DNA of 64,000 bases from an uncultured Gammaproteobacteria bacterium (GTDB lineage Bacteria; Pseudomonadota; Gammaproteobacteria; Arenicellales; JAANXG01), in contig CAMYKK010000016.1 in the NCBI GenBank assembly GCA_947258975.1, forward strand, positions 6,673 through 70,672, in the 5' to 3' direction. Position numbers and translations under genes: made by a program. Below the pieces are notes generated by a model that made no database searches, was not told the origin of the DNA, and saw only the letters and a list, made by a program, of their open reading frames with translations. This document shows positions 30,410 to 50,899 of this stretch, piece by piece; the first letter of the stretch is position 1, and the number at the start of each line of letters is the position of its first letter.

Positions 30410-30594
30410 TTGTTGGCTTCAATTATAGCCAATTTGGTGACGGTTATAATCGACGTCAGAATCCAATGACGGTCGCGCGCAAACAGCCGTGTCCGCACGC
30501 GCCGTCAGGCGTTCATGCGATCGATCATGTCCCGGCTGGATACGCTGCCGCCAGTGACGTAAGCGACGTCATCGGCAACGGCGCTGTCTGCTCA

Positions 30595-33273: not shown

Positions 33274-33345
33274 TGTAGATGGGATGCGGCAGTTTAGATG
33301 TATGGTTGTAGGTGTTCACGTAGCTGCTGGTTTGATGTAAGGCGA

Positions 33346-33359
33346 TTGATTCCTGTCAA
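33346..33359. promoter_or_regulatory. FNR box between divergent pat and cytochrome c genes
   Basis: TTGAT-TCCT-GTCAA (9/10); TAAAGT -10 at 33382-33387. Confidence 0.75.
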
Positions 33360-33423
33360 TGCATTTTTGCCAGCCACCATGTAAAGTTCAGATATTCGCA
33401 CATTGATGCTGGAGGCAATGTCG

Positions 33424-33849
33424 ATGAAAAAATTCAGTTTGTCGTTGGTGGGCCTCACTTTGGGCATTGTGCTAGTGACCGGTTGCGCATACGTCCGCAA
33501 GGTAACCTATCCGCCCGACTTCGTATATCTCGAGGACAGGAAGGTCGTTAGCGCCATGGCCGACCTTAATGTCGACATGTGGCGTATCGATGACATTATC
33601 GCCAATTCTGAATCCATCTGGCCCTATCAACGAGAAGAAATTATTCAACTTTTGCGGCATATGGAAGACGTTGCGGACCGACTTGGCGCCGGAACTGCGG
33701 TCACCAATCATCTTCTCATCGATCAGAATATTGATTTATTCAAGGACGATGTACGTGCCGCACGCAAGTATGTGCAAAGTGACCCGCCGAATTATTATCT
33801 CGCCGGCCGTTTGTCCGGTAGCTGCACGGCATGTCACCGGCGGCGTTGA
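33424..33849 (+). CDS. Lipoprotein monoheme cytochrome c with C-terminal CxxCH (class II / cytochrome c'-like)
   Basis: Lipobox LVTGC, helical body, terminal CTACH; GGAGG RBS. Confidence 0.75.
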   Translation: MKKFSLSLVGLTLGIVLVTGCAYVRKVTYPPDFVYLEDRKVVSAMADLNVDMWRIDDIIANSESIWPYQREEIIQLLRHMEDVADRLGAGTAVTNHLLIDQNIDLFKDDVRAARKYVQSDPPNYYLAGRLSGSCTACHRRR

Positions 33850-33861
33850 TGTGCTGGCGGA

Positions 33862-35685
33862 TCATTGCTGGAACACGTAGCGCCCCGGCGCGTCTTCCAA
33901 CGGTTGGCAGCCATGGTCCGTTGCGCCAGACCTTGGCGCCTCGACCTTTTCCGTTGAGTGTTGTCCCAGCCACTTAATCCACACCGGCCACCAGGATCCG
34001 TCCTGTTTTCGTGTGTTTGCCTGCCAGGTATCGGGGTCGATGTACCGGTCGCCTTCCTTTCGCGTGGTGAATTGAAAAGCGCGCCCCGGGTGACCGGGTT
34101 CGCTGACGATTCCCGCATTATGCCCACCGCTGGTAAGTGTAAAGGTGACGTCCGTGTCTGCCAGCAAATGAATCTTGTAAACCGACCGCCACGGAGCGAC
34201 ATGATCGTTGGTGGTCGCCACTGAGAAAATCGGTGCGCGGATGTCGGTAATCGATATCGGTCGCCCGTCCACGATATAGCGGCCGGCGGCGAGGTCATTG
34301 TTGAGAAACAACCAGCGCAGATACTCGGAATGCATGCGATAGGGGAGGCGCGTGGTGTCCGCGTTCCACGCCATCAGGTCGTTCATCGGTTTACGCCTAC
34401 CCATGAGGTAGTCGTGAACCGCCCGCGACCAGATCAGATCATTGGAGCGCAAGAGTTGAAAAGTCCCGGCCATCTGTCTGGCGTCCAGATATCCCTGTTC
34501 CCACATGATGTCTTCAAGGTACGCGACTTGTGCGTCGTCGATGAATAATGTGAGTTCACCTGCTTCAGTAAAATCAGTCTGGGCTGCGAAGTGGGACAGG
34601 GTTGCAATCCGTCCATCTCCATCTCTGGCCATGGCGGCTGCGGCGATGGTCAGAAGGGTGCCGCCGAGGCAATAGCCTACGCCGTGAACCTGGGTGTTAG
34701 GAATCACTTTGCAGACGGTGTCCACTGCCGCCATCACCCCGCGCCGCCGATAATCCGACATGCCCAAGTCGCGATCCTTTTCGTTGGGGTTTTTCCAGGA
34801 AATCATGAACACGCTGAAGCCTTGGTCAACGAGATACCTGACCAGAGAATTCTCGGGCGATAGATCCAAGATGTAGTATTTCATAATCCATGCCGGTACG
34901 ATAAGAACCGGCTCTTTTTGCACGTGCGACGTCGTAGGGCGGTATTGGATCAATTCGATCAGGCGGTTGCGGAAAATGACCTTGCCGGGTGTGTTGGCGA
35001 CGTTGTCGCCGACCCTGAATCGTTCCGCGCCGATTGGCGGCTTCGCTCCGGTTACCCGCTCCCAGTCCTCGATAAAATTGTTCCATCCGCGAATGAGGTT
35101 GTGACCGTGTTCTTCAATGGTCGTCTTTGTTACTTCGGGATTGGTCCACAAGAAATTGGAAGGTGAGAAAAAGTCCAACCACTGACGGGCGCCAAACGCC
35201 ACTGCCTCTTCATGGTGCCGAGATACGCCGCTGACTTCGGTTGTTGCGTTGTGCCACCACTGTTGTGTCAACAAAAACGACTGATATAGTAAGTTGTACG
35301 GCCATAAGTCCCATGCCGGATGGACAAACCGTTTGTCTTGAGGCAACGGCTCGATACACAGTGCGGCATCGCCGCGAACACATCGCGCGCTTAACAAACC
35401 GAGTCGGGTTGTTTTACGCACCGCCTTCGTCAGCAGTTCGCTCTGTTTGCCGGGTGATGACATCAAATGCAAAAGCCAGTCTAAATAAGCTTGCATCAGC
35501 GACACCGGCGATAGACCGTTCGTCAGCCGCGCCAACCAGGCGTGAAACAGACGATCATAGACATGGGGCGACCGGACGACATCCTGAAACACCGCCTCCG
35601 CTGCGGCGGGATGACGAATGCCGCCAGCGGTTGCGGGTTGATCTCGTCGTCCGTTATCAGAAGCGATGGGCACCGGCTCGGTCAC
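33862..35685 (-). CDS. phaC: Polyhydroxyalkanoate synthase (class I type with PHBC_N domain)
   Basis: SPSNFLWTNP, TPGKV, PAWIMKYYILDL, lipase box GYCLGG, WNAD, DHVAPW, SGGHNAG, GSWW. Confidence 0.93.
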   Translation of the reverse strand: MTEPVPIASDNGRRDQPATAGGIRHPAAAEAVFQDVVRSPHVYDRLFHAWLARLTNGLSPVSLMQAYLDWLLHLMSSPGKQSELLTKAVRKTTRLGLLSARCVRGDAALCIEPLPQDKRFVHPAWDLWPYNLLYQSFLLTQQWWHNATTEVSGVSRHHEEAVAFGARQWLDFFSPSNFLWTNPEVTKTTIEEHGHNLIRGWNNFIEDWERVTGAKPPIGAERFRVGDNVANTPGKVIFRNRLIELIQYRPTTSHVQKEPVLIVPAWIMKYYILDLSPENSLVRYLVDQGFSVFMISWKNPNEKDRDLGMSDYRRRGVMAAVDTVCKVIPNTQVHGVGYCLGGTLLTIAAAAMARDGDGRIATLSHFAAQTDFTEAGELTLFIDDAQVAYLEDIMWEQGYLDARQMAGTFQLLRSNDLIWSRAVHDYLMGRRKPMNDLMAWNADTTRLPYRMHSEYLRWLFLNNDLAAGRYIVDGRPISITDIRAPIFSVATTNDHVAPWRSVYKIHLLADTDVTFTLTSGGHNAGIVSEPGHPGRAFQFTTRKEGDRYIDPDTWQANTRKQDGSWWPVWIKWLGQHSTEKVEAPRSGATDHGCQPLEDAPGRYVFQQ

Positions 35686-35748
35686 AAAGTATTCCCCAAT
35701 TTACGCAGCTTTTGTATAGTTATTATCCACGCGTTGGTGCGCGGGTCT

Positions 35749-35762
35749 ATGATCCGGGTCAA
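35749..35762. promoter_or_regulatory. FNR-like box upstream of phaC
   Basis: Minus strand TTGAC-CCGG-ATCAT (8/10) with GATAAT -10 at 35727-35722. Confidence 0.6.
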
Positions 35763-35944
35763 ATCATTATGCAGCGCAACATAACCCACAACCCGCGCCG
35801 CGATGGCGCCGGCGAATTCGACACGGCGCGCTACCGTCGCCACCTGGCAGCAAGATTAGCCTCGGTGCCATCCACCGCGGCCACGGGCCCGTGCTCCACT
35901 GGTGCTGATGCTCCGGGCAAGTTGGGCACAATCCGGCACTCGTT

Positions 35945-35958
35945 TTGATATCGATCAA
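35945..35958. promoter_or_regulatory. Perfect FNR box upstream of the host-attachment/baeRF1 gene
   Basis: TTGAT-ATCG-ATCAA; TATTGT -10 at 35981-35986; GGAG RBS. Confidence 0.88.
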
Positions 35959-36008
35959 GGCGCCTCGGGTTGCGGATATTTATTGTGGTAACAAAAGGAG
36001 AGCGCATT

Positions 36009-36461
36009 ATGACGACTTGGTTATTGGTTGCCGACAGCGTACGGGGAAGGGTGTTTCGGGCCGATTCACCGACCGGGCCGATCACCGAGATCGTCACTCT
36101 CGCTCACCCGGAAGGCCGCCTCCACGAACAGGCGCTGACCAGCGACCTTCCCGGCCGCACGTTTGACCGCGGTGGGCAGGGACGCCACATCATGGAGGAT
36201 CGAATCAGCGCAAAGGAGCAAGATAACATACGATTCGCGCTTCGCATTGCCGACCATCTGGAGACGATGCGGATGGAGGGAAAGTTCGAGCGACTTATCA
36301 TCATCGCACCGCCCGAGTTTTTGGGGATCTTGTCCGCAAAGCTGAGTGATGCCACGCGGAAACTGGTCAGCATGCGAGTCGATAAGAACCTGGCGCAGGA
36401 AACTGCGAAGCAGATTCGTGCGCACCTGCCCGTGCGGCTGTGGGGCAATGCGGCCGGTTGA
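36009..36461 (+). CDS. Host attachment protein / bacterial archaeo-eukaryotic release factor (baeRF12-like) family
   Basis: TWLLVADSVRGRVF, LTSDLPGR, F..RIADHL, LIIIAPPEFLG.L, VDKNL. Confidence 0.85.
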   Translation: MTTWLLVADSVRGRVFRADSPTGPITEIVTLAHPEGRLHEQALTSDLPGRTFDRGGQGRHIMEDRISAKEQDNIRFALRIADHLETMRMEGKFERLIIIAPPEFLGILSAKLSDATRKLVSMRVDKNLAQETAKQIRAHLPVRLWGNAAG

Positions 36462-36637
36462 GGCCAGACGCGCACCGGCTTGATGCATACGGGCTAAGTT
36501 TCCATGGCCGTATAACAGTATCCATGACAGCGACAGGTTGTGTCCCGAGGGTATGATGCGGCTTGTTTACGGCGCCGATATGACCAACGTCACGGTACAC
36601 GTTTGCTATACAAGAAAATCTCACACAACCTGCCGAA

Positions 36638-36651
36638 TTGATCGAAATCAA
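36638..36651. promoter_or_regulatory. Perfect FNR box about 320 bp upstream of Yip1-ccoN
   Basis: TTGAT-CGAA-ATCAA; AACAAT -10 at 36674-36679. Confidence 0.85.
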
Positions 36652-36968
36652 GGACGAAGTCGCTCCGGTGCCGAACAATATCTCTCTAACGCTGCGCCTC
36701 AGGATTTGGCCCGTATGTCGCACCAAGGTGATGAAGATATAGATCTGATGTTGTTTGGAAGAAGGAATTCGAGCAGTGCCCGGTGTCAAATCTTGTGCCC
36801 GAGTATGCGCCTGTCAAGGCGTATGCGTGGACTTGAAGGTCTGGATTTGCACTTCACTGAACCCCAAGCAACGGCTGCTTCAGCGCACCGTCATCCGGGT
36901 TCCTTGTTGCAACATTTGGAATGACATTGGCGCGGGAAATAATTTAATACCAGGTAAGAGCACATATC

Positions 36969-37568
36969 ATGCTACAACATGTTACAGGTCTGTTGACCCA
37001 GCCACGGCAAGAATGGGAAAAGATTCACACTGAAGAAGAATCTGTCGGTGAGTGTTACCTGCGCCATGTCCTGCCGTTGGCGGCGTTGTCTCCGGTAGCG
37101 GGAATATTCGGCACCACGCTGATTGGCTGGCAGATTGGCAGTAGTGTCCCGGTGACCCTGACCGTGGGCAGCGCCGTACAAATCGGTATCGTCTACTACC
37201 TTTCGATACTGTTTTCGGTGTTCATGATTGGGGTGGTGATTCGCTGGATGGGAGAGACGTATGGCGCTGAGCAATCATTGTCGCGTTGTGTGGCCCTTGC
37301 CGCGTACACCGCAACGCCGTTGTTTTTGGTCGGCGCGATGCAGCTGTATCCCGTTTTGTGGGTGAATTTTATCGTTGGTTTACCGGCCCTCGCGTACACC
37401 GTGTATCTGCTCTATATGGGTGTACCGGTCATGATGGAAATCCCCACGGAACGCGGGTTTCTATTTGCCAGTGCCGTCCTCGCCGTCGGCTTGGTGACAT
37501 TGGTTGGCCTGCTGGTGAGTTCCGTCATGTTATGGAGCTTCGGTATCGGGCCGTACTTTGCGGTGTAA
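36969..37568 (+). CDS. Yip1/DUF1282 (YohC-like) inner membrane protein
   Basis: [48 protein letters not shown]. Confidence 0.88.
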
Positions 37569-37606
37569 GCACGCCGGGTTTGATTCTTGGGAGTTCGGAG
37601 AAGCTG

Positions 37607-39022
37607 ATGAGTACAGAAAACACCTACAACTATCGAGTCGTGCGGCAATTCGCCATCATGACGGTCGTGTGGGGCATTGTAGGCATGCTGGTCGGTGTGA
37701 TCATTGCCGCGCAAATGGCATGGCCGCAGCTCAACTTTGATATTGCTTGGTTGACTTTCGGGCGGTTACGGCCCCTGCATACCAACGCGGTGATCTTCGC
37801 CTTCGGTGGATGCGCGCTGTTCGCATCCTCCTATTATGTCGTACAGCGCACTTGTCACGTGCGGTTGTTCTCTGACAAATTGGCTGGTTTTACTTTCTGG
37901 GGTTGGCAGTCGGTGATCGTGCTTGCCGCGCTAACACTGCCACTGGGCATTACCACGTCCAAGGAATATGCGGAACTCGAATGGCCCATCGATCTGTTGA
38001 TCACGGCGGTGTGGGTGGTCTACGCGGTGGTGTTTTTTGGTACCCTGGTAAAGCGCAAGATCAACCATATCTACGTGGCAAATTGGTTTTTTGCCGGTTT
38101 CATACTCACCATCGCGGTGCTGCATGTCGTCAACAGTGCGGCGCTGCCGGTGTCGTTCACCAAGTCCTATTCGGCGTTCGCGGGTGTGCAGGACGCGATG
38201 GTGCAGTGGTGGTACGGCCATAATGCGGTCGGTTTCTTCCTCACGGCGGGATTCTTGGGCATCATGTACTACTTTATACCCAAGCAGGCGGAGCGCCCCG
38301 TGTATTCGTACCGCTTGTCCGTGGTGCACTTTTGGGCGATCGTGTTTACTTACATCTGGGCGGGACCTCATCATCTCCACTATACCGCGCTGCCGGATTG
38401 GGCACAGTCATTGGGTATGGTGTTTTCGTTAATTCTTCTGGCGCCATCGTGGGGTGGCATGATCAACGGCATTATGACTCTGTCTGGGGCGTGGGAAAAA
38501 CTGCGCACCGACCCAATTCTTAAATTCTTGATTGTCTCGGTGTCGTTCTACGGTATGTCGACGTTCGAAGGACCGATGATGGCCATCAAGACTGTTAACG
38601 CGCTGTCCCACTATACGGACTGGACCATCGGTCACGTGCATTCCGGCGCCCTGGGTTGGGTCGCTTTTGTATCCATTGGCGCGATGTACTATCTGATTCC
38701 GCGATTGTTTGACCGCGAGTTGTATAGCCTCAAGCTCGCCGAGATCCACTTTTGGATCTCGACTATCGGCATTGTGCTCTATATCACCTCGATGTGGATT
38801 TCCGGGATTATGCAGGGCCTGATGTGGCGGGCGGTGAATGCGGACGGCACGCTGACATACAGCTTTGTCGAAAGCGTGCAGGCAATGCATCCGTATTACA
38901 TCATCCGCTTTCTTGGTGGCGCCTTGTTTCTAACAGGCATGTTGATCATGGCCTACAACTTGTACCGTACCGTGGTCGGGGCCAAGCCGCATGAAGCGGT
39001 CATTCCCGCGGTCGCACACTGA
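37607..39022 (+). CDS. ccoN: cbb3-type cytochrome c oxidase subunit I
   Basis: [44 protein letters not shown]. Confidence 0.98.
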
Positions 39023-39032
39023 GGTAGCTGCC

Positions 39033-39644
39033 ATGGGGTTACAAGAAAGAGTTGAAAAAAACGTAGGGCTGTTGATCGTTCTGACTTTGTTGGTGGTCAG
39101 CGTGGGTGGACTGGTGCAGATCGTTCCCTTGTTCTTCCAGCAGTCAACCACGGAACCGGTCTCCGGCTTGAAGCCTTACACCGCACTACAACTGACTGGG
39201 CGCGATATCTATATCCGCGAAGGCTGTTACGCCTGTCATTCGCAGATGATCCGGCCGTTTCGCGCCGAAACGGAACGCTACGGCCATTACTCAGTGGCCG
39301 GCGAGTTCGTCTACGACCGGCCCTTCCAGTGGGGGTCCAAGCGCACCGGTCCGGACCTGGCCCGGGTGGGTGGCCGGTACAGCGATGACTGGCAGCGCGT
39401 TCATATGATCAATCCGCGGGACGTGGTGCCCGAATCCATCATGCCGGGGTATCCGTGGCTGGCTGACACGCCGGCCGACGCGTCAAACATCGAAACAAAG
39501 TTGCGCGTGCTCAGAACGCTCGGTCATCCTTATAGCGACGAAGAGATCAACAATGCGTCCAAGGACCTCGAAGGTAAGACCGAGTTGGATGCAATGGTGG
39601 CCTATCTTCAGGTCTTGGGCATCAGCGTGAAAACTCGCAGGTGA
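39033..39644 (+). CDS. ccoO: cbb3-type oxidase subunit II
   Basis: [24 protein letters not shown]. Confidence 0.98.
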
Positions 39645-39648
39645 CGCA

Positions 39649-39831
39649 ATGGGACTCGTACACGGCATTTGGACCCTGTTGTTGTTGTTGATTTTCTTGG
39701 GCATTGTCGCCTGGGCCTGGAGTTCGAAACGTAAGAAACATTTCGAGCAAGCGGCGCAGATTCCATTACAGGACCGTGACTCGGCCTCCGAGGGTGAACC
39801 ACAGAACATGGAGAAAAAAGATGGCTGCTGA
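39649..39831 (+). CDS. ccoQ: cbb3-type oxidase subunit IV
   Basis: Single TM, FLGIVAWAW..RKKHFEQAAQIPL. Confidence 0.92.
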   Translation: MGLVHGIWTLLLLLIFLGIVAWAWSSKRKKHFEQAAQIPLQDRDSASEGEPQNMEKKDGC

Positions 39832-40729
39832 CTTCGTAAGTGATTTTTGGCATTGGTTTATCGTCATTCCGACGGTGATCGGGATACTCGCGTTGTTTCC
39901 ACTGGTAATCTTGAATCGGGGAAAAAAGACCGCCGACAAACCCGAGACCATGGGCCACGTCTGGGACGAGGATCTACAGGAATACAACAACCCATTACCG
40001 AAGTGGTGGCTGAACATGTTCTACATCACAATCGTGTTTGGGCTCGGTTACCTTGTCTTGTATCCCGGCTTGGGCAAGTTCGAAGGGATCTGGGGGTGGT
40101 CCTCGACTGGGGAGTACGACAGCGAGGTCAACGCAGCGAATCAAAAGTTCGGTCCGTTGTTCAAAAAATATGCCGCCATTGACATAGAAACTCTCGCCAA
40201 GAATCCCGAGGCGATAAAGACCGGTGAGCGGTTGTTTGCCAATTATTGTTCAACCTGCCACGGCGCGGATGCGCGCGGTGCCCTCGGGTTTCCGAACCTG
40301 CGTGATCAGGATTGGTTGTATGGAAATGAACCGGCGCAAATCAAGGCCACTATCCTGAACGGACGCAACGGGATGATGCCGGGTTGGCAGGCGGCGCTCG
40401 GCGACGATGGCGTAAAAAACGTCACGGAATTTATTTTTAGTTTGAGCAGAAAAGAGGTCGACCTGGATGCGGCGCAGGCCGGACGCGAGCACTACAACAA
40501 GATGTGTATAGCCTGTCATGGCCCAGACGCGAAGGGAAACAAGCAACTGGGCGGCGCCAATCTGGCCGACAACGTCTGGTTGCACGGGGGTTCGCGTAAG
40601 GCGGTGATGCGCACCGTCGCCGAGGGGCGTCAAGGAAGGATGCCCCCGCATAAGGATTTTCTCGGTGAGGACAAGGTCCATATACTGACGGCCTACGTTT
40701 ACAGCTTATCGGCCGGCAAAACTCAGTGA
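39821..40729 (+). CDS. ccoP: cbb3-type oxidase subunit III
   Basis: GHVWDEDLQEYNNPLPKWW, CSTCH and CIACH heme motifs. Confidence 0.97.
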   Translation: MAADFVSDFWHWFIVIPTVIGILALFPLVILNRGKKTADKPETMGHVWDEDLQEYNNPLPKWWLNMFYITIVFGLGYLVLYPGLGKFEGIWGWSSTGEYDSEVNAANQKFGPLFKKYAAIDIETLAKNPEAIKTGERLFANYCSTCHGADARGALGFPNLRDQDWLYGNEPAQIKATILNGRNGMMPGWQAALGDDGVKNVTEFIFSLSRKEVDLDAAQAGREHYNKMCIACHGPDAKGNKQLGGANLADNVWLHGGSRKAVMRTVAEGRQGRMPPHKDFLGEDKVHILTAYVYSLSAGKTQ

Positions 40730-40992
40730 GCCGGAAAAGCTCGCCAAAATCCCAACGGCTGGTGGCAGTGTTATGGCCGTCGTTCTTGGTGTCTGGTGTC
40801 GCTACGGTCCTCTTTTTTGTGATGTTTGATCCGCTGCCACGGCTTGCGAATACCGATTTGGCGGAGCTGAGCCGGCTAGGCGCCTACAACATCGGGTTTT
40901 TGTGGTTTTTGATTACCGCGGCCAGCAGCTGGTTGACGTGCTATTGTCAACGCTCTCCCGAGCAGCTTGAACAGACCACGGCCGACGCGTGA
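40726..40992 (+). CDS. Small two-TM hypothetical protein of cco clusters
   Basis: LWPSFL...FF.MFDP...SRLGAY..GF.WF; GTGA overlap with the ccoP stop. Confidence 0.7.
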   Translation: MSRKSSPKSQRLVAVLWPSFLVSGVATVLFFVMFDPLPRLANTDLAELSRLGAYNIGFLWFLITAASSWLTCYCQRSPEQLEQTTADA

Positions 40993-41095
40993 GAATGTTG
41001 GTATAAAGCATAGCGGAACGTGCTCATCTGGCAGCACAACCTTTATCACCGACAACATCGTACCGCTGAAGTCCTCTCCTCAGGTTAACAGACAG

Positions 41096-42487
41096 GTGAC
41101 AAGCTCAGTCGAAAATATCGAACAGACACTGTACGCCAAGCGCGAGAAGATATTTCCGCGACAAGTGCACGGGTTGTTTGCGCGTCTACGGTTGCTCGGT
41201 ATTACCGTTTTGATGGGTATTTATTACGGCCTGCCGTGGGTAACTCTGGGAGACCGTCAAGCAGTGTTGTTTGATCTGCCGGCACGTAAGTTCTATATAT
41301 TCGCCCTCTCATTCTGGCCCCAGGATTTCATTTATCTCGCCTCATTGTTGATCATCGCTGCGTTGGCATTATTCTTCTTCACGGCCTTGGCCGGACGTCT
41401 ATGGTGCGGGTATGCCTGCCCGCAAACGGTGTGGACGGAAGTTTTTTTATGGATAGAACGCAAGGTAGAGGGGAATCGTGCCAAGCAGATGAAATTGGAT
41501 AAGTCGCCGTGGAATCGTCGAAAAGTTCTCATCAGGGGAACGAAGCATGTCCTTTGGATCGCGTTGTCTCTATGGACGGGGTACACTTTTGTTGGCTACT
41601 TCACGCCAATTCGGGAATTGGGCCATTCCGTACTCAACTTGAGCACCGGACCGTGGGAGACCTTTTGGTTGATCTTTTATGGATTTGCCACGTACGGTAA
41701 TGCGGGTTGGCTGCGGGAACAGGTATGTATATACATGTGTCCCTACGCGCGTTTCCAGAGCGCGATGTTTGACAAAAATACGCTCATTATTTCCTATGAC
41801 ATTGATCGCGGTGAGCCGCGTGGGTCGCGCAAGCGCGGCATTGATCCAAAAAACGCCGGCTTAGGTGATTGCATAGATTGTACTTTGTGCGTCCAGGTCT
41901 GTCCTACTGGCATAGATATTCGTAATGGTTTGCAATACGAATGCATTGGTTGCTCAGCATGCATCGACGCGTGTGATGAGGTCATGGATAAGATGGACTA
42001 CCCGCGAGGTTTAGTGCGTTATACCACCGAAAATGCCATCGAGGGCAAACCAGCCAGAGTGCTGCGTCCTCGGGTGCTGATGTACGCGATAATCTTAATT
42101 GGTCTACTCGGCGCAGTGGGCTATTCCATTGCCATTCGCGTGCCTGTCGGTCTCGATGTGATCCGTGATCGAAATTCCCTGTATCGTGAGACGGTGGAAG
42201 GTCTGGTCGAAAACGTATACACCCTGAAGTTGCTGAATATGGATGATCGAGATCAGCGATATCGAGTGTCAGCGTTTGGCCTGAAAGACCTGACGCTGAA
42301 ACAAGACCATGCATCCATCGAAGTTCCTGCCGGACAAGTGCGCGAGTTTTCCGCACGACTGCAGATCGACCCGGTAAACCTAAAACAGGCCAGCAATGAA
42401 GTGTTCTTCGAACTGGTAGCAATCGATAATGAAACCCTGAGGGTCCGTGAGCCCGCACGTTTTCTTGGACCCTCGAGGTCGCGATGA
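41096..42487 (+). CDS. ccoG: cbb3 oxidase accessory protein CcoG/FixG
   Basis: GRLWCGYACPQT, CIYMCPY, CIDCTLCVQVCP, CIGCSACIDAC; start uncertain. Confidence 0.95.
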   Translation: MTSSVENIEQTLYAKREKIFPRQVHGLFARLRLLGITVLMGIYYGLPWVTLGDRQAVLFDLPARKFYIFALSFWPQDFIYLASLLIIAALALFFFTALAGRLWCGYACPQTVWTEVFLWIERKVEGNRAKQMKLDKSPWNRRKVLIRGTKHVLWIALSLWTGYTFVGYFTPIRELGHSVLNLSTGPWETFWLIFYGFATYGNAGWLREQVCIYMCPYARFQSAMFDKNTLIISYDIDRGEPRGSRKRGIDPKNAGLGDCIDCTLCVQVCPTGIDIRNGLQYECIGCSACIDACDEVMDKMDYPRGLVRYTTENAIEGKPARVLRPRVLMYAIILIGLLGAVGYSIAIRVPVGLDVIRDRNSLYRETVEGLVENVYTLKLLNMDDRDQRYRVSAFGLKDLTLKQDHASIEVPAGQVREFSARLQIDPVNLKQASNEVFFELVAIDNETLRVREPARFLGPSRSR

Positions 42488-43047
42488 GAATGAGTGTGCC
42501 AGAGCCGGTACGAGAATGGTATCGTCAGCCGATGGTGTGGTTGTTGATTGCCATACCGCTGTCGGCCGTGTTGATGGGTGTGACGATCATCATTTTGGCT
42601 GTCGTCAGCAATGACGGCATGGTCGCTGATGATTATTACCGGCGCGGGATGGAGATAAATCAATCTCTGGCGCGGGACCGGATTGCGGCGCGCTACGGCC
42701 TGCGCGCCGTGGTCAAATTGGATACGGATGGAAAGGCGATTCATGCGACACTACGTGCGGACAACGTGTTGCGGTTTCCCGACAGCGTACAGCTAACTCT
42801 TTCGCACGCTACCCAGTCGGGACTTGATCGCAGCATCAGGTTGATACAAACTGCGGGACGGGTTTATCAGGCGGGACTTCCGGAGTTGCCTGTCGGGCGG
42901 TGGTACGTGCAACTGCACGCGAGGGACTGGAGGTTAAACGGTGTTTTGCAGGTTCCCGGGCAGAATGAGCTGATCTTGGAGAACGATTCGACGCTCGAAA
43001 GCGTTAGCGGCGCATACCCTGGTGCCAGGCGCCACAGCGGGCGTTGA
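42484..43047 (+). CDS. ccoH: FixH/CcoH family protein
   Basis: WYRQPMVWLLIAIP, DGMVADDYYRRG.EIN. Confidence 0.9.
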   Translation: MRMSVPEPVREWYRQPMVWLLIAIPLSAVLMGVTIIILAVVSNDGMVADDYYRRGMEINQSLARDRIAARYGLRAVVKLDTDGKAIHATLRADNVLRFPDSVQLTLSHATQSGLDRSIRLIQTAGRVYQAGLPELPVGRWYVQLHARDWRLNGVLQVPGQNELILENDSTLESVSGAYPGARRHSGR

Positions 43048-43225
43048 CTGAATACACTGTTGCGCACCGCACCATATCAGTTCTCGTTTACGCGATTTTA
43101 CGCGGACACGTGGCGCGCGTGGCCGGCCGGTCCTAACGGAGGAATGGAAGGGGTGCCCATTTCCGGCGTGCGATCACCGCCGCGCTGCGGTTGACCGGAA
43201 GGTTTGGTTTTACCTTGCTCTAGTT

Positions 43226-43239
43226 TTGACTTAGATCAA
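43226..43239. promoter_or_regulatory. FNR box upstream of the hemerythrin gene
   Basis: TTGAC-TTAG-ATCAA (9/10). Confidence 0.75.
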
Positions 43240-43336
43240 ATAGTAAGCTGTTTCTGCGGCGCCGTTGTTGCCGTATGTCGGTAAGTTGTATCAAAGTGAT
43301 TTAATCTGGACAACGCGTAGCTATCGGAGAGTGGGT

Positions 43337-43909
43337 ATGACCAATGTCATCGAACAGATTCACCAGGATCACGTCAATATGGCGCGCCTGTTGAATCTCG
43401 TAGACGCAGAAATTGACAAGGCAAAACAGGATGGCATGCCGGATTTTCTCATGCTGGAGCATGTGATGCGTTACATGACCAATTATCTTGATCAAGTGCA
43501 TCATAATAAAGAAGATGCAATGTTTCGACGCGTTGTCAGCCTGGATCCGCAAGCGAAAGACGCGGTGAAGGATCTGCTGCTCGAACATGAGGAATTGAAA
43601 AGCACGGGGCGGCAGCTCTATGATCTCGTATGTGCGGCGCAAAACTCAGATTTTGTTCGTCGCGAGGATGTCATTTCGCAGGGGACGGATTACGTAAGGA
43701 CGCTACGAACGCACATGGGCAAGGAGGAGGGCGATCTGCTAGCGCGAGCGAGGCGGTTATTGACGGAGCACGACCTACGCGATGTCGATGCCGAGATCGA
43801 CTCGATCCATGATCCGCTATTCGGCGACACGGTGGAAAAAGAGTATCAAAGCCTTTATGCGTATATTATTGCGCAGCAGGAAAGCGTCGCCGAAGCACGT
43901 CAAGGCTAG
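43337..43909 (+). CDS. Hemerythrin (HHE) domain protein
   Basis: HQDH, HHNKED, EHEEL, HMGKEEG, DPLFG. Confidence 0.88.
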   Translation: MTNVIEQIHQDHVNMARLLNLVDAEIDKAKQDGMPDFLMLEHVMRYMTNYLDQVHHNKEDAMFRRVVSLDPQAKDAVKDLLLEHEELKSTGRQLYDLVCAAQNSDFVRREDVISQGTDYVRTLRTHMGKEEGDLLARARRLLTEHDLRDVDAEIDSIHDPLFGDTVEKEYQSLYAYIIAQQESVAEARQG

Positions 43910-44315: not shown

Positions 44316-44525
44316 TCAATTTCGTGTTGGTGTGTCATCCGCGTCCGATGATTTTTCGGTTTGTTCCGGTGTGCTCGACGGGGTGTCGTTGTCGTCCAGC
44401 AGGATCCGGTAGGCGGGGCCCTCGAGATCGTCGAATTGGCCGGACTTGACTGCCCACACGATTGCCCACACGATGACGCCGACCAGCGCCAAGGACAGAG
44501 GAATTAACAAGAACAATATCTCCAT
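44316..44525 (-). CDS. ccoS: cbb3 oxidase assembly protein CcoS
   Basis: MEILFLLIPLS, WAVKSGQFDDLEGPAYRIL. Confidence 0.95.
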   Translation of the reverse strand: MEILFLLIPLSLALVGVIVWAIVWAVKSGQFDDLEGPAYRILLDDNDTPSSTPEQTEKSSDADDTPTRN

Positions 44526-44586
44526 TAACGCCTCACGGTGTGCCGTGGTGCCATGTGCGGATTAGTCTCATCAACGACTCGCTCCT

Positions 44587-47088
44587 TCAACGAGTCGCCC
44601 AGGAGCGGCCTCTGGGGCCAACACCCGGGGTTCGTTCACGAGTTGTGATTGACTCCTGTGAAGGCCGGCGCTCGCGTAAACGCAGTGCATTACCCACAAC
44701 GAGTAATGAACTGGTGGACATGCCGATGGCAGCCAGCCATGGTGGCACCATCCCCATTGCGGCGGCGGGCAGAGCAAGCAGGTTGTAAGCGATCGCCCAG
44801 GTTACGTTTTGACGCACGACCCGCATGGTGCGTTTTGCCAGTCCGAATGCTTGAAATAACGTGTAAAGTCTGTCATTCAATAGTATGAAATCGGCGTTGA
44901 TGCGCGCGAGGTCGGTCCCATCGCCCATGGCGATTGACACCTGTGCTGCGGAGAGTACCGGTGCGTCATTGATACCGTCGCCCACCATGGCCACCGTATA
45001 TCCGTTGGCCTGCAATTCTTGAAGTTTGGAAAGCTTTTGTTCCGGTGTCAGTCCCGAGGCTCGTTCACGTATCGCCAGTTGATCGGCAATTTTATTGACA
45101 GGCCCGGCACGGTCCCCTGAATACAACGCTAAACCAACGCCGGTTTGCTCGAATGCACGAATCGTTTCGGTGGCGTCGGTACGCAGGTGATCGGCAAATA
45201 AGAATTCTCCATGCACCCGCTCGTCATCGGCGAGTAGCACAACCGTATTATCGCCGAGTGACATCGGTACATTCCGCACGCCGGCGCGCTCCATGACGTA
45301 TTCCGGGCGGCCGAGATGATAGCGCTTGCCTTCCACGGTGCCGCTGATCCCTCCCCCAGACTTGGTGACAAGATCTAATGCCTGCTTCGCCGGTATTCCC
45401 CCGGCCACCGATAGGACCGCTTTGGCCAAAGGATGCTGGGAAAAGGCCTCCAACGCAGCAGCGATGGCTAAGCCCTCGTTCCGCGGAAGGTCCGATAGCA
45501 TATGGGCCTCGGTAAGGATTATGTCACCCTGAGTTAGCGTGCCGGTCTTGTCGAATACAAAGTAATCCGCGCGTGCCAACCGTTCAAGGGCATCGCCACC
45601 GGTGGCGATAATTCCCATTCCGGCGAGGGTGTTTGATACCGTTGTTTGCGCGGTTGGCACGGCCAGCGACAGGGCGCACGGACACGTGATCACGAGCACC
45701 GAAATCGTAACCGCAAGCCAGATGCTCGGATCCTGATGCCACCAGTACATACCTACCACGACAGCCAGACACAACACCGCGATGACGAACGCCGTCGCTG
45801 CACGGTCTGATAGTCGTGTCAGCCTCGGTTTATCGAGCTGCGCCCGCTCCACCAGCCGTACTATCTGCGATAGTATGGTGTCTTCCCCCACTCCGGTGGT
45901 CTCGATCTCGATGGGTTGCTCCAGGTTAACCGACCCCGCGAGCACTAGCTCTCCCAGTCGTTTTTCAATCGGCCGGCTTTCGCCCGTCAAAAGGGTCTCG
46001 CTGACACTGGAGCTGCCGGTTACTATTCGCCCGTCGGCCGGTACGTTGGCGCCCGCGAATACGCGCACGCGATCCCCATTTTTAAGTTCCCTCGCCAATA
46101 CCGTCTCTAATTCCCCCGAGGCGGTAATTCGTTCGGCAACATCTGGCGCAGCCCGCATCATGGCGTCCAATTGACGTGTGCTGCGTTGACGCGCCACGAG
46201 TTCAAAGTAACGTGCAGATAATAAAAAAAACACGAACATGGCCACCGACTCGAAGTACACCTGTCCGCCTCCGTTCCAAGTCGCCCACGCGCTACCTGCA
46301 GATGCGATGGCGATTCCCAACGCGACCGGTACATCCATCCCGGGCCGTAAATACTTCATGTCACGCCAAGCACCGCTGAAGAACGGAGACGCGGCATAAA
46401 GCAATATCGGCACAGTCAGCAGCAAACTGACCCAGCGGAACAGATTCTCATAGGTCCACGAAATGCCGTGCCATTTTCCAAAGTACATGGCGACTGCGAT
46501 CATCATCACCTGTATGCCGAGTGCCGCAGCCACGCCGAGGCGCTTGAGCAGTTGCTTGCGCGCCTTTTCGATAACTCGTTCGCGCTGGTCCGGATTGTAG
46601 GGGTGAGCGACGTATCCGATATTTTGAATCGCCGCGAGGATGTTGCTCAACTGGATGCGATCTGGGTCCCAGGTTACCCAGGCGCGATGGGTCGAATAGT
46701 TTACGTGGGCTTCGCGGACGCCGTCGAGTGAACGCAAGTGATGCTCATTCAGCCAACTGCATGCGGCACAAGTTATTCCCTCCAGGATCAAAGCCGCCTG
46801 AAGTGATCCCTCCTCTGGTTCCCGGACGAAACTCTTTTGCACGTCAGGATGATCGTATGTGGAAAGCGCCGTGCTCAGATCGGGGATTAGATGTACGGGA
46901 TTGTGTGCAGTCTCGGTGCGGTGGTGGTAATAGTCGCCGTAGCCACCGTCAATGATCGCTTGGGCAACTGCCTGGCAGCCGGGACAACACATTGGGCGCT
47001 GTTGGCCAGCGATCTCCACCCATTGCTTCGTCCCGGATGGGACCGGCAATCCGCAGTGGTAACAATTTGTGTGCGCCGCATCCGCCAT
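44587..47088 (-). CDS. ccoI: Copper P1B-type ATPase CcoI/FixI
   Basis: CYHC..CCPGC, GITCAAC, TGES, CPCALSLA, DKTGT, GDGIND. Confidence 0.93.
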   Translation of the reverse strand: MADAAHTNCYHCGLPVPSGTKQWVEIAGQQRPMCCPGCQAVAQAIIDGGYGDYYHHRTETAHNPVHLIPDLSTALSTYDHPDVQKSFVREPEEGSLQAALILEGITCAACSWLNEHHLRSLDGVREAHVNYSTHRAWVTWDPDRIQLSNILAAIQNIGYVAHPYNPDQRERVIEKARKQLLKRLGVAAALGIQVMMIAVAMYFGKWHGISWTYENLFRWVSLLLTVPILLYAASPFFSGAWRDMKYLRPGMDVPVALGIAIASAGSAWATWNGGGQVYFESVAMFVFFLLSARYFELVARQRSTRQLDAMMRAAPDVAERITASGELETVLARELKNGDRVRVFAGANVPADGRIVTGSSSVSETLLTGESRPIEKRLGELVLAGSVNLEQPIEIETTGVGEDTILSQIVRLVERAQLDKPRLTRLSDRAATAFVIAVLCLAVVVGMYWWHQDPSIWLAVTISVLVITCPCALSLAVPTAQTTVSNTLAGMGIIATGGDALERLARADYFVFDKTGTLTQGDIILTEAHMLSDLPRNEGLAIAAALEAFSQHPLAKAVLSVAGGIPAKQALDLVTKSGGGISGTVEGKRYHLGRPEYVMERAGVRNVPMSLGDNTVVLLADDERVHGEFLFADHLRTDATETIRAFEQTGVGLALYSGDRAGPVNKIADQLAIRERASGLTPEQKLSKLQELQANGYTVAMVGDGINDAPVLSAAQVSIAMGDGTDLARINADFILLNDRLYTLFQAFGLAKRTMRVVRQNVTWAIAYNLLALPAAAMGMVPPWLAAIGMSTSSLLVVGNALRLRERRPSQESITTRERTPGVGPRGRSWATR

Positions 47089-47381
47089 TGAGAACCTTTG
47101 CATACCGACAGTAATCGCAGTGCTTGTTACCGTGGCCGGCTAATCTCCGTCGGAGCGATCGCTAGCCGTGCAATGAGCGACGAGAGCATGCGTGTATGTT
47201 GGCTGACCAGGGTCCGTGACATTCGATGGTTGCGAGCCCGATCAAATGTGAGCCCCCCGCTGTCGGCGTCTCCATTGCAGCGCCAGCAGCGGTAGCGTCT
47301 GTGCACACCCTGGAAGCGCACGGAGTATGCCCAAGCCACACCAGTAAGACCGGGTTGTCCACGCCCGGCCACACTTGGTTT

Positions 47382-48149
47382 CTAGTGTAACATGTCCGCA
47401 AACGGCTTGATTTTTGGCAAGCGAAATCCGGCCAATACATTTAAACGATCATGGTTCTGGATTTCTACGGAATTCCTGTTTACGGAAATCACTTTGTCGT
47501 GTTGCAGGCGTGTTAGTGTGCGGCTGACCGTTTCCACTGCCAGGCTCAAATAACTGGCGATGTCGGTGCGTGACATCGGTAGAGTGAAGTTGGTGGAAGA
47601 GAAGCCTCTATTCAGATAGTAGTTGGAGAGCGTGACGAGAAACGACGCGAGCCGCTGAGTCGCGCTCTTGGTTCCAATGGTCACCAGAAAATCTTCTTCC
47701 CTGGCCATCAACGCGCTTATTCGTTTGAGCATTGTTTCCTGGATTCGAATAGAGCCCATACACAACGTAGCGAGATCCCCAAAGCGAATCGCGCAAACAC
47801 TTGCGGTATCGAGCGAGACGGCGTGGCATGTATAGTACCCGCGGGCAACCGCGTTGAATCCGATCAGATCACCGGGAAGATGGAAGTCGATTATCTGTTC
47901 TTCGCCGTCGGGCGTAATTTTGTACGTCTTGAACGCTCCGGACCGCACCGCGTACAAATAGTCAAAGGCATGGCCTTCATTGAACAGTGATTGGCCCCGT
48001 TTTAATAGCTTTGGAGTTGCGGAGATATTCAACAGATCGTGCGTCTCAGTGTCCGACAGGCCTTGGCCCAGACAAACACCGGCTCGATCACAGGACTGGC
48101 ACTGACCTGATTGCAGGGGGAATTGGACGACTTGTGTTTCGCGACTCAT
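47382..48149 (-). CDS. fnr: Fnr/Anr-type oxygen-sensing Crp-family regulator
   Basis: N-terminal C-x2-C-x5-C (CQSCDRAGVC), fourth Cys in SVCAI, recognition helix ETVSR. Confidence 0.88.
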   Translation of the reverse strand: MSRETQVVQFPLQSGQCQSCDRAGVCLGQGLSDTETHDLLNISATPKLLKRGQSLFNEGHAFDYLYAVRSGAFKTYKITPDGEEQIIDFHLPGDLIGFNAVARGYYTCHAVSLDTASVCAIRFGDLATLCMGSIRIQETMLKRISALMAREEDFLVTIGTKSATQRLASFLVTLSNYYLNRGFSSTNFTLPMSRTDIASYLSLAVETVSRTLTRLQHDKVISVNRNSVEIQNHDRLNVLAGFRLPKIKPFADMLH

Positions 48150-48222
48150 GACGGTCCTCCTATGGCTTGTTTTCCACAAACCATATACCGTCAGCAACCA
48201 CCGACCAACTCGCGATTCCACG

Positions 48223-48238
48223 TACGTGGTTCTACGTA
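48223..48238. promoter_or_regulatory. 7-2-7 palindrome, putative FixJ/NarL-family site upstream of fnr
   Basis: TACGTGG-TT-CTACGTA, 6/7 symmetric, 74-89 bp upstream of the fnr ATG. Confidence 0.55.
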
Positions 48239-48250
48239 TCGTGATCCCAG

Positions 48251-48658
48251 TCAGTGATGGGTGTCGGTTTCGAGGGCGTTTATGATGTGTTCGACCAGTC
48301 TCTGGTTTCGAAACGGCTTGGTGAGGACCACCGAAGCGCCGGCGGTTTGTGCACGGCTGACCAAGGTATCGTCCTTCTGCGCCGTGATCACCACCGTGGG
48401 GATGGCAATACCGCGATTCCCCAGTTCTTCCAGTAGCTCCACGCCGTTCATTCCCGGCATGCGAAGATCCAGCACCAGGCAGTCGCTTTTCGATCGCTGA
48501 TAATTAGCGAGAAACTCTGACGCCGAGGCATAGGGCCGCGCTTGCCAGCCCATGGAATACGCCAATAGGGTGATCGCCGAGCGAATCGCTTGATCATCGT
48601 CCACAATGTATAGTGTGGACGGGGAATTGGAACCAAAACTCGTTTGATATTGAGCCAT
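48251..48658 (-). CDS. Single-domain response regulator (receiver only; FixT-like position)
   Basis: IVDDD, LDLRMPGMNG, ITA, KPF; no output domain. Confidence 0.85.
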   Translation of the reverse strand: MAQYQTSFGSNSPSTLYIVDDDQAIRSAITLLAYSMGWQARPYASASEFLANYQRSKSDCLVLDLRMPGMNGVELLEELGNRGIAIPTVVITAQKDDTLVSRAQTAGASVVLTKPFRNQRLVEHIINALETDTHH

Positions 48659-48724
48659 GATTAGGAACGAAATGGGCGTCTCTGCGTAGGCATAGTAGTA
48701 GACACCAGAGTACGGAAAGATGCT

Positions 48725-48738
48725 TTGATGCGGATCAA
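48725..48738. promoter_or_regulatory. Perfect FNR box upstream of the receiver-only gene
   Basis: TTGAT-GCGG-ATCAA in the fixJ-receiver intergenic gap. Confidence 0.85.
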
Positions 48739-48761
48739 TTACCCTTCTAATCAAGGCCGTT

Positions 48762-49379
48762 TCACTCGCTGGAATTGGAGATCAGCTGCACCAGCTCTAC
48801 GGCATTTTTGACTTCCATCTTTTTTAAAATCCGCGAGCGATGTAACTCGACCGTTCGCTCACTAATTCCAAGGTCGAGGGCGACGACTTTATTCGGCTTT
48901 CCGGCGGTGATCATGTCCATGATTTCGCGCTCCCTGTGGGTGAGCCGCATAACTCGTTGCTCGACCGCGCGGTGCTGGGTGACGCGGGTGTAGTTATCGC
49001 GCTCATTTTGCAGGGCCTGCCGCACGCAGTTCAATAACAGTTCCTGATTCACCGGCTTCTCAATGAAATCCATCGCTCCGTCCTGCAGTGCTTGTACCGC
49101 GGTGGGCACCGTCCCATGACCGCTCAAAAAGATGATTGGCATGGTAACGCCGCGTTCGAGCAACTGCTTTTGCACCGCGAGTCCGTCCATGTCCGGCATT
49201 TGCAGGTCAAGGATAACGCAACCACGGCATGCGCAGTTCTCGGGACAGGATCTGAAAAAGTCCAGCGCTGAAGCGAAATGTACAATTTTGAATCCTTCGG
49301 ATTCGAGCAACAACTTCAGACCCGCGCGCACCGCGTCATCGTCATCGATGATATAGACGATCGATGATTCGGACATCAA
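48762..49379 (-). CDS. fixJ: FixJ-family response regulator (REC plus LuxR HTH)
   Basis: IIDDDDAVR, LDLQMP, SGHG.VP.AV, LTHREREI, GKPNKVVA..LGISERTVE.HR. Confidence 0.85.
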   Translation of the reverse strand: MMSESSIVYIIDDDDAVRAGLKLLLESEGFKIVHFASALDFFRSCPENCACRGCVILDLQMPDMDGLAVQKQLLERGVTMPIIFLSGHGTVPTAVQALQDGAMDFIEKPVNQELLLNCVRQALQNERDNYTRVTQHRAVEQRVMRLTHREREIMDMITAGKPNKVVALDLGISERTVELHRSRILKKMEVKNAVELVQLISNSSE

Positions 49380-50899
49380 TACATTGCTTCCATGATCGGT
49401 AGAGTGAAAGAAAAAGTAGCGCCGCCTGCTGCGTTTGATGTCGCTGACAGTACACCGTCGTGGGCTTCAATGATCCTGTGGCTGATGGACAAACCCAGTC
49501 CTGTACCGTTTTCTTTCGTTGTGTAGAAGGCGGTGAACAGGTTGGTCATATCGTCGGTGAATCCACAACCGGTGTCGCTGATTTTTACTAGTAGCGTATC
49601 GTCGTGTTTGCAGGTTTCTATATCCAGCTGCCGCAAATCACTGGCCTCCGTTGCTTCAATTGCGTTCCATACGAGATTCAGCACTACCTGTTCGACCTGT
49701 AATTGGTCGGCCCAAACACCGGGAAGATGCTTGCCAAGATGCAGTTTCACATCGACTTCATTCATATGAATTTCGTGACTTACCATTGCCAACACGTCTT
49801 TTATGACCGCATTCAAGTGGACGATCTCTCGATCGAGCGCACCGGTCTTTACGAATTGGCGAAGTCGGCGAATGATGTTGCCGGCGCGTATTCCCTGCTC
49901 GGATATCTGACTCAAGGCGTCACCGATTACGTCTTCTGGAATTTTATCTTTCTTGAATAGATTCTGGCATGCGTCGGCAAAACTAACGATGGCGGTCAAC
50001 GGCTGATTGAGTTCGTGGGCGATCCCGGATGCCATTTCCCCCAACGCGGCCAGGCGCGCGGCGTGTGCGTGTTCAGCCAGCCTCTCTCGTTCTCGCTTCT
50101 CCGACAAACGCCGTTCCGATGTGTCTCGAATAACGCCCGTAAACAACCGTCGGTCCGGTAACAACACTTCGCTGAGGCCCAATTCCATCGGAAACGTGCT
50201 GCCGTCTCTGCGGAGACCCATCAGCTCTCGCCCGCTTCCTATGACCTTGGCCTCGCCTGTGCGCAGGTAATTTTTAATATATCTATCATGTTCCTCGCGG
50301 TAAGGAGACGGCATCAATATTTTTACATTCCGGCCTATCGCCTCTTGCGCGTCGTATCCAAAGAGCCTTTCCGCCGCCGGATTAATGGACTCGATGATAC
50401 CTTCGGTGTCGATGGTGACAATACCTTCGATTGCAGTCTGGACGACAGCGTGCAGTCTGGCCGCATGTTCCTCGATCTCCCGTTGAGCGCGTTTCTTGCC
50501 GGTAATATCCAGTCCGGCGCCTATGATCCAGCGAACACGTCCATTGTCCTCACGTATTGACGAATTGAACCAGTGGACACAAATTCGCCGTCCGTCCTTG
50601 GTCAGCCAGTAGTTTTCATTCTCGTTGGGGACCGGCTTTTGGACGAGCTCGTCAAACACAGCCTTTACCTCATCCACCTGCTCGGGAAGCAACAGGCGGT
50701 CCCACACAAATTCGCCGATAACTTCGCCCCGGTCATATCCGGTGGCGGTTTCACATGCGTTATTGAAATAGACCACCCGGCCCTCCGGGTCCAGTGCGAC
50801 CAACAGCACGCCGGTGTGGGCGAGTATCGCCGCCGCGGTTCCGGGCTCGGTGGCAAGCGGATCGAATTGTTGTGCCGGTTGTTGATGTTTTACCGTCAT
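49376..50899 (-). CDS. fixL: FixL-like PAS-PAS histidine kinase with heme-PAS
   Basis: LMPSPYREEHDRYIKNYLRTGEAKVIGSGR heme-PAS motif, AHELNQPL H-box, GTGLGL. Confidence 0.88.
   Translation of the reverse strand: MTVKHQQPAQQFDPLATEPGTAAAILAHTGVLLVALDPEGRVVYFNNACETATGYDRGEVIGEFVWDRLLLPEQVDEVKAVFDELVQKPVPNENENYWLTKDGRRICVHWFNSSIREDNGRVRWIIGAGLDITGKKRAQREIEEHAARLHAVVQTAIEGIVTIDTEGIIESINPAAERLFGYDAQEAIGRNVKILMPSPYREEHDRYIKNYLRTGEAKVIGSGRELMGLRRDGSTFPMELGLSEVLLPDRRLFTGVIRDTSERRLSEKRERERLAEHAHAARLAALGEMASGIAHELNQPLTAIVSFADACQNLFKKDKIPEDVIGDALSQISEQGIRAGNIIRRLRQFVKTGALDREIVHLNAVIKDVLAMVSHEIHMNEVDVKLHLGKHLPGVWADQLQVEQVVLNLVWNAIEATEASDLRQLDIETCKHDDTLLVKISDTGCGFTDDMTNLFTAFYTTKENGTGLGLSISHRIIEAHDGVLSATSNAAGGATFSFTLPIMEAMY

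Follow-up and report, generated by a model that had tools for sequence, protein, structure and literature searches.

A fixL–fixJ–receiver–fnr cassette with a four-cysteine FNR in the FixK position in a gammaproteobacterial lineage

Introduction

Does a gammaproteobacterium place an iron–sulfur oxygen sensor behind a heme-based one? The question is raised by a 64,000-nucleotide stretch of contig CAMYKK010000016.1 from an uncultured member of the Arenicellales (hereafter the window), in which a fixL-like kinase gene, fixJ, a gene for a stand-alone receiver, and fnr lie together. A first-pass annotation had described these as co-oriented genes forming a hybrid circuit with two O2 thresholds and a FixT-like brake, and all four open reading frames (ORFs) do lie where it placed them, on the minus strand. 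The cassette is real and conserved, a variant of the FixLJ–FixT–FixK cascade in which a distinct lineage of four-cysteine FNR occupies the FixK slot.

We suggest that the cassette works as follows. Falling O2 would free the heme kinase FixL to phosphorylate FixJ, and phosphorylated FixJ, predicted to recognize a conserved 16-bp box, would in turn induce fnr. The FNR protein could act on genes preceded by FNR boxes, among them those of the neighboring cbb3 oxidase region and the receiver gene, only when it carries its predicted [4Fe-4S] cluster. The outcome would be an AND gate in which heme sets the amount of FNR and the cluster sets its activity. The receiver, induced late via its FNR box, would damp FixL signaling, more probably by taking phosphate than by FixT-style inhibition. 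Judging from sequence, we lean toward this full arrangement, in which FixLJ acts on fnr and the predicted cluster gates FNR activity.

Conservation and phylogeny of the cassette

The order fixL–fixJ–receiver–fnr was found in 9 of 20 family genomes, comprising all seven of the window's own genus as well as G007 and G009 and spanning three genera. The synteny search proposed with the first-pass annotation also recovered it in metagenome locus L146, where a receiver sits between fixJ and a four-cysteine FNR. FixJ-like matches at an E value of 1e-42 or better were present in 14 of the 20 family genomes and in 0/5 genomes of genus g5. In genus g6 the order is fnr–ccoI–fixL–fixJ–degenerate receiver (G011, G013, and G015); the parts lie on two contigs in G019 of the same genus, where linkage was assumed. 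Among the best 80 of 587 metagenome loci, four have a heme-type fixL–fixJ directly upstream of a four-cysteine FNR, and L150, with the end of a fixJ at its contig edge, is a fifth linked locus.

A survey of 400 genomes across the class returned 17 matches to the heme-PAS-kinase query besides the window's own genome, a floor because only the top five candidates per genome were scored. Of the 16 examined (G299 was left out), four had the heme His motif, and three of these (G306, G150, and G347) had fixJ and a four-cysteine FNR nearby. G435 and G315 were rejected as the same system: the FixL-like kinase beside FNR has no heme His, the box is missing, and the FNR falls outside the clade described below. 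A search of genome contigs for related loci gave three true relatives among six loci. We also observed the same gene order in Paraburkholderia largidicola (L213:1-3184), with a PAS kinase of NarX-like class, a NarL-type regulator, a stand-alone receiver, and a four-cysteine fnr; this cassette looks convergent, with a different kinase. The receiver–fnr pair also occurs in B. cenocepacia (L215).

Both sensory halves of the cassette form clades of their own, in parallel. The FixLJ-associated FNRs group together with support of 99/94 in a tree that has 11 unplaced database proteins inside the clade, 94/93 in a second tree that omits six long or unrelated rows, and a Shimodaira–Hasegawa value of 82 in a quick tree. 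This clade stands apart from E. coli FNR, Shewanella EtrA, beta-type Fnr, and the canonical FNRs of the same family, while alphaproteobacterial FixK and FnrN are separated by a 100/98 branch. The phylogenetic check of the regulator thus put it with gamma- and beta-type FNR, in its own subclade, and not with FixK or FnrN. The FNR of G347 falls outside the clade, and a gene of G008 has a long branch and unsure placement. Similarly, 15 linked FixL and FixJ pairs group in a clade supported at 100/99, in which the deep split seen among the FNRs recurs; the pairs of G306, G150, and G008 lie outside it, and three alphaproteobacterial pairs group separately. Recent transfer of the cassette from alphaproteobacteria finds no support in these trees, for which the references were three alphaproteobacterial FixLJ pairs and three FixK-like proteins.

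An FNR-type regulator in the FixK slot

The last gene, fnr (47382..48149, minus strand), encodes 255 residues from an ATG preceded by an AGGAGG site. Its product has the C-x2-C-x5-C motif plus a central cysteine (C17, C20, C26, and C119), which align with the FNR ligands as the first-pass annotation had read them, and an E206-x-x-S209-R210 recognition helix; the absence of cluster cysteines that marks FixK does not apply here. The predicted fold agrees, since the top 11 Foldseek matches are A. fischeri FNR, though the model has a predicted local distance difference test score below 50 for residues 1–21 and is silent on the cluster. Cysteines, tree, and fold therefore all bear out a regulator that is FNR-like and not FixK-like. 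It shares the four ligands, the E-x-x-S-R helix, and the fold with E. coli and A. fischeri FNR and Shewanella EtrA, from which it differs in identity (~38%), in its separate clade, in having a FixJ-type box upstream, and in the replacement of E150, S24, and L28 (E. coli numbering).

The genome (96% complete) contains 11 Crp-family genes over the Pfam cut-off, of which this fnr is the only close FNR homologue; none of the other 10 has the C-x2-C-x5-C motif. One of these, on contig C3, bears an E-T-V-S-R helix and could share FNR boxes. We also noted three related Crp-family genes on contigs C59, C73, and C52 with cysteine-rich N-termini and P-E-S-x-x-R helices.

Several observations weigh against the full arrangement. 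The best NCBIfam family is Fnr, at 198.9 bits against 114 for Caulobacter FixK, but this score is below the family cut-off of 228. Among the 20 members of the FixLJ-associated clade, E150 is kept in none (73/89 comparison proteins) and L28 in two (80/89), S24 is kept in three (67/89), and D154 has become a neutral N or H in 11. The available part of one study of E. coli FNR ties these four positions to O2 sensitivity and dimer stability, and associates a neutral charge at 150 or 154 with higher aerobic activity (PMC4672761). In the window's FNR the dimer-switch positions D130, R140, E150, and D154 are A127, Q137, L147, and E151; because these tuning residues have changed (L at 150, E at 154), its O2 threshold may differ from that of E. 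coli FNR.

These replacements raise the alternative that FixJ activates the gene but that its product, an intermediate between FNR and FixK, is largely FixK-like, having kept its cysteines while becoming O2-tolerant or partly cluster-independent, with FixL setting the main threshold. A relative of the cassette gives this some substance: in G008 (L046:4523-7748), fixLJ is divergent from an FNR-derived Crp gene that has lost its cysteines and retained a FixJ-type box and is accompanied by a degenerate receiver, and the genome carries a separate canonical FNR, making an independent origin of a FixK-like protein possible there. We nevertheless consider the alternative fairly unlikely for the window. 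All four cysteines are retained in 20 of 20 clade members at only ~40–50% identity, which implies selection for the cluster, and the clade likely binds a [4Fe-4S] cluster as predicted from these ligands. The window's FNR also retains an acidic residue at 154, and the E. coli rules transfer poorly because D130 and R140 are mostly missing among the 89 comparison proteins too (R140 is kept in 10), though E150 is not; the G008 branch, as noted, is long and uncertainly placed. The preferred reading of a cluster-gated FNR therefore keeps the first-pass idea of two O2 thresholds only in part. The ligands are in place and a sequence of heme first and cluster at lower O2 is plausible, but the clade has lost O2-tuning residues.

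A conserved FixJ-type box upstream of fnr

The first-pass annotation had reported a 7-2-7 palindrome before fnr. The site is present at 48223..48238 as an imperfect 16-bp palindrome of the form TAnG-N8-CnTA (box 1) with one mismatch, six of seven arm pairs matching; it is perfect in G002, G004, and G006. A weaker box 2 (48209..48224; matrix score 7.1) overlaps it, and conservation in the alignment is highest over the upstream half of box 2. Across nine aligned cassette upstream regions, this conserved compound site is followed ~21 bp on by a TATA-like block, and from this block and the geometry we derived a candidate -10 hexamer for fnr at 48182..48187 on the minus strand. There is no consensus -35, which fits an activator-dependent promoter. 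The consensus promoter scan missed the candidate -10, and neither it nor the repeat finder reported the FixJ-type sites. If the -10 is right, box 1 spans about -63 to -48 and box 2 about -49 to -34, near the S. meliloti FixJ footprints at -69 to -44 and -57 to -31 (PMC4999443). Selection of FixJ-bound sequences by systematic evolution of ligands by exponential enrichment gave the consensus GTACGTAG and the class GTAMGTAG (PMC4999443), and an R. palustris fixK promoter carrying GTACGTAG was shifted by FixJ according to the accessible portion of PMC13327599. The exact octamer occurs in G001, G004, G007, G009, G008, and G150, and the window carries two copies that each have one mismatch.

The distribution of the box argues most directly for control by FixJ. 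Scored within 150 bp upstream of regulator genes, with a chance expectation of 0.009 per scanned interval, TAnG-N8-CnTA precedes 17 of 22 regulator genes associated with heme-type FixLJ (10/14 family loci, 2/3 heme-FixLJ loci elsewhere, and 5/5 linked metagenome loci) and 1 of 79 unlinked genes (0/13 genome loci and 1/66 metagenome loci, the latter after skipping eight loci and leaving out L131, whose upstream DNA was short). The four family loci without it have a TGCG left arm instead, neither of two loci with non-heme kinases has it, and it is missing from the FNR genes of the FixJ-less genus g5. A stricter hexamer, TACGTA, was tested first and marked 14/14 family loci and 0/16 unlinked genes; the pattern was widened after 16-mers resembling the S. 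meliloti site were seen at linked metagenome loci. By a measure independent of the window, the five linked metagenome sites are 2–5 mismatches from that mapped site, and only 1 of 79 unlinked genes has a site within five or fewer. A matrix built from nine sites outside the family, chosen with the same TAnG-N8-CnTA pattern, ranks 48223–48238 first of 5,490,391 genome positions (19.3 bits, where the runner-up scores 17.7).

Some of these results also weigh in the other direction. The 16-bp pattern was fixed post hoc, after the sites had been seen, and since kin are not independent its counts are not p-values. Outside the family, TACGTA was rejected as a weak marker, found at 1/4 linked and 3/76 other metagenome loci, although one of those three, L150, later proved to lie 3' of a fixJ end. 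Of its 16 bases, the window's site mismatches that of S. meliloti at 7, which is no better than background, and only intermediates tie the two together. The matrix gives E. coli fnr a score of 11.9, which exceeds those of three g6 sites, and G347 has heme-type FixLJ beside a four-cysteine FNR with no box. A looser 7-2-7 pattern in the 20 family genomes gave about as many hits as a reversed control and was uninformative genome-wide.

An alternative is that most fnr transcription is read-through from the promoter of fixLJ or of the receiver gene, with positive autoregulation through an FNR box included, and that some other regulator binds the palindrome or the palindrome has only a modulating role. 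The genes are co-oriented with 100-bp gaps, no terminator-like site was found by scanning between them, including between receiver and fnr, and the receiver's FNR box may for that reason also drive fnr in a positive feedback; the seven mismatches and the many Crp-family genes, one with the E-T-V-S-R helix on C3, would fit as well. Nonetheless, the box tracks heme-type FixLJ across families and is lacking in g5, it is retained where fnr heads its own unit (g6, G306, and G150), and the linked metagenome sites are close to the S. meliloti site, making read-through very improbable as the main explanation. We conclude that a FixJ-type site lies upstream of a Crp/FNR target gene and that FixJ very probably binds the predicted box at 48223–48238; the earlier proposal of FixJ control of fnr is well supported by box conservation, matrix rank, and pattern counts, and the predicted direction of control would run from FixLJ to FNR.

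Two other identities for the palindrome were rejected. Its half-sites are by eye a poor fit to the NarL consensus TACYNMT. Nor does it serve the receiver gene as a terminator: it has no T-tract, and in g6, where fixLJ has shifted downstream of ccoI, it stays with fnr. In L034, L036, and L129 we observed an FNR box just before the fnr start codon, 3' of the FixJ-type box, likely for negative autoregulation; the fnr of the window lacks one. In G008, a possible further FixJ target is an ORF read as alkane monooxygenase-like, with a second near-perfect 7-2-7 box ~275 bp upstream (L124:13811-13826).

The predicted heme kinase FixL and the cysteine loop of FixJ

The fixL-like gene (49376..50899, minus strand) encodes a soluble sensor kinase of 507 residues in which Pfam recognizes a PAS domain, a heme-type PAS domain (H204, R224), HisKA (H295), and HATPase. 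The second PAS keeps both the heme His and the distal Arg when aligned with B. japonicum and S. meliloti FixL and with FixL in the Protein Data Bank, and the intact heme-PAS His motif claimed earlier was thus recovered. Residues 147–501 share 43% identity with S. meliloti FixL, and this heme-type PAS joined to kinase domains is predicted to bind heme, with O2 expected to inhibit the kinase. In G001 (L030), a Cys stands in place of the distal Arg in the heme pocket.

The fixJ-like gene (48762..49376, minus strand), whose start shares one base with the fixL stop, encodes a response regulator of 204 residues with a receiver (D57) and a LuxR-type helix–turn–helix bearing the FixJ-type recognition helix R-T-V-E-x-H-R. 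Both proteins match their named families best without reaching the cut-offs, FixL at 365.9 bits against the rhizobial FixL equivalog cut-off of 850 and FixJ at 213.7 against 255.

A new feature is a four-cysteine loop in the FixJ receiver, C44-P-x2-C48-x-C50-x2-C53 (49218..49247, minus strand), directly before the phosphoacceptor strand. Eight of nine cassette FixJs have it, with G007 the exception, and among 36 aligned homologues 11 have it along with an insertion of two residues; the last cysteine is shared by nearly all FixJ-like receivers. In a weak alignment, C44 and C53 match the two cysteines of S. meliloti FixT. The cassette might on this basis hold three metal sensors in series, namely the FixL heme, a FixJ loop that is an iron–sulfur or redox-active site, and an FNR cluster whose tuning shifted when E150 was lost, in a lineage that built its own FixK step from FNR with intermediates from cluster-bearing to cysteine-less still visible, though we consider this quite doubtful. 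That the kinase senses another heme ligand or a redox signal (NO, CO, or thiol state), with the cysteine loop as part of the input, is extremely unlikely: the loop, the Cys in G001, and an Asn at the position of B. japonicum R206 would allow it, but both H204 and R224 are in place, the other heme-type FixLs in the tree retain the distal Arg apart from G001 and S. meliloti-type variation nearby, and the cassette adjoins cbb3 oxidase genes and FNR boxes.

The stand-alone receiver

Between fixJ and fnr lies the gene for a single-domain, FixJ-type receiver of 135 residues (48251..48658, minus strand) in the fixT position. The perfect FNR/FixK box that the first-pass annotation had placed before it was confirmed at 48725..48738, 66 bp ahead of the ATG. 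TTGAY-N4-RTCAA is kept at this place in all nine cassettes, and near forms occur in G013, G008, and L146. With the best candidate -10, the box is centered at -46.5, where -41.5 is usual for FNR.

Whether this receiver acts as FixT does is less certain. The best NCBIfam family is FixJ, and identity is 25% to S. meliloti FixT (E 2.5e-4) and 40% to the FixJ receiver. The phosphorylation site is intact (D20/D21, D64, T92, and K114), while S. meliloti FixT partly lacks D64, T92, and K114. Six linked loci (L127, L129, L139, L150, G306, and G150) have no such gene, which makes the receiver optional. Because its phosphorylation site is intact, unlike that of FixT, the protein may be a phosphate sink, which we consider at least as likely as an inhibitor. 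The "FixT-like brake" of the earlier annotation thus holds for position and for the conserved FNR box but not for sequence; from position and timing, the receiver is likely a brake on FixL signaling.

Genomic neighborhood

Genes for cbb3 oxidase and its assembly adjoin the cassette. Downstream of fnr are a ccoI-like heavy-metal (copper-type) P-type ATPase gene and a short ccoS-like ORF, the latter read by eye (44400..47103, minus strand), presumably for cbb3 oxidase assembly; ccoI lies 3' of fnr in every cassette genome with a long enough contig. Overall, the window contains eight FNR boxes (three perfect and five with one mismatch) against 1.96 expected, a count equaled in 1 of 100 shuffles, and seven of the eight are intergenic by reading. 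Six further intergenic boxes fall within 27598..43909, likely a local target region, near genes for cbb3 oxidase, PHA synthase, an acyl-CoA ligase/acetyltransferase, and USP-like and hemerythrin-like proteins, where the cco, USP, and hemerythrin names come from reading the translations.

Two non-coding features were observed in passing. An AT-rich inverted repeat at 51020–51065, between fixL and divergent TolC–RND efflux genes, is kept in eight of nine cassettes and missing in G007, which lacks the efflux genes there; it is probably the operator of the efflux operon. After the hemerythrin-like gene, a non-coding stretch (43910–44330) has an apparent inverted pair at ~44062–44085 and 44215–44238.

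Relation to known systems

The closest likeness is to S. meliloti pSymA, where fixL–fixJ–fixT–fixK–cco has the same gene order, neighboring cbb3 genes, and the same layout of an imperfect FNR-type box before fixT and a mapped 16-bp FixJ site before fixK. Similar orders are given for B. diazoefficiens (fixJ–bll2758–fixK2) and R. palustris (fixLJ–rpa4249–fixK) in the available parts of PMC9104804 and PMC13327599. Unlike S. meliloti, the last gene here encodes a four-cysteine gamma-type FNR and not a cysteine-less FixK (32% identity), the receiver retains its phosphorylation site, and the FixLJ pairs group in a clade of their own. The window's genome yielded no FixK-type gene.

The predicted wiring has comparative support, but a hybrid circuit of this kind is not unprecedented. 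In R. leguminosarum, the same two-threshold logic is established, in that a heme sensor acting at mild hypoxia induces an iron–sulfur regulator that acts at lower O2 on cbb3 genes (hFixL–FxkR–FixK–FnrN); as far as the accessible text of PMC7888657 goes, that relay takes three steps via FixK, with a hybrid kinase and FxkR, an OmpR-type protein unrelated to FixJ, whereas here FixJ is predicted to act directly on fnr. In the Burkholderia cepacia complex, FixLJ induces fixK, a homologue of anr2 (BCAM0049) that is 43% identical to Anr according to the portions available of PMC12071387, PMC9104464, and PMC12973609. We infer that a B. cenocepacia chromosome-2 gene (248 residues, 27.24 kDa against 27.199 listed) is BCAM0049. 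Its product keeps all four cysteines, and a direct FixLJ-to-cysteine-FNR wiring thus probably exists there, though the gene is not beside fixLJ, has no TAnG-N8-CnTA upstream, and groups with canonical beta-type Fnr. Caulobacter FixT, a single-domain receiver in FixLJ feedback, inhibits FixL, was never seen phosphorylated, and binds an iron–sulfur cluster via a four-cysteine motif (PMC7078487). Relative to that account, our receiver has one cysteine and an intact phosphorylation site, and the four-cysteine motif sits in FixJ with different spacing; its location would match that of the Caulobacter motif.

The literature searched, which included few subscription papers and no supplements, held no description of a gammaproteobacterial fixLJ–fnr cassette. 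A search for the motif string returned unrelated papers only, and the available parts of PMC7713065, PMC3759049, and PMC2654016 held nothing relevant.

Significance

Comparative work in alphaproteobacteria has seen FixLJ–FixK and iron–sulfur FNR as alternatives, or as joined via FixK. Several gammaproteobacterial lineages combine the whole cassette, recognizable FixJ box included, with an FNR that bears the cysteines. The cysteine loop of FixJ is a possible metal site on a DNA-binding response regulator and is cheaply testable. As a compact four-gene system, the cassette may help to explain why an iron–sulfur sensor would be gated behind a heme sensor, and how an FNR becomes a FixK.

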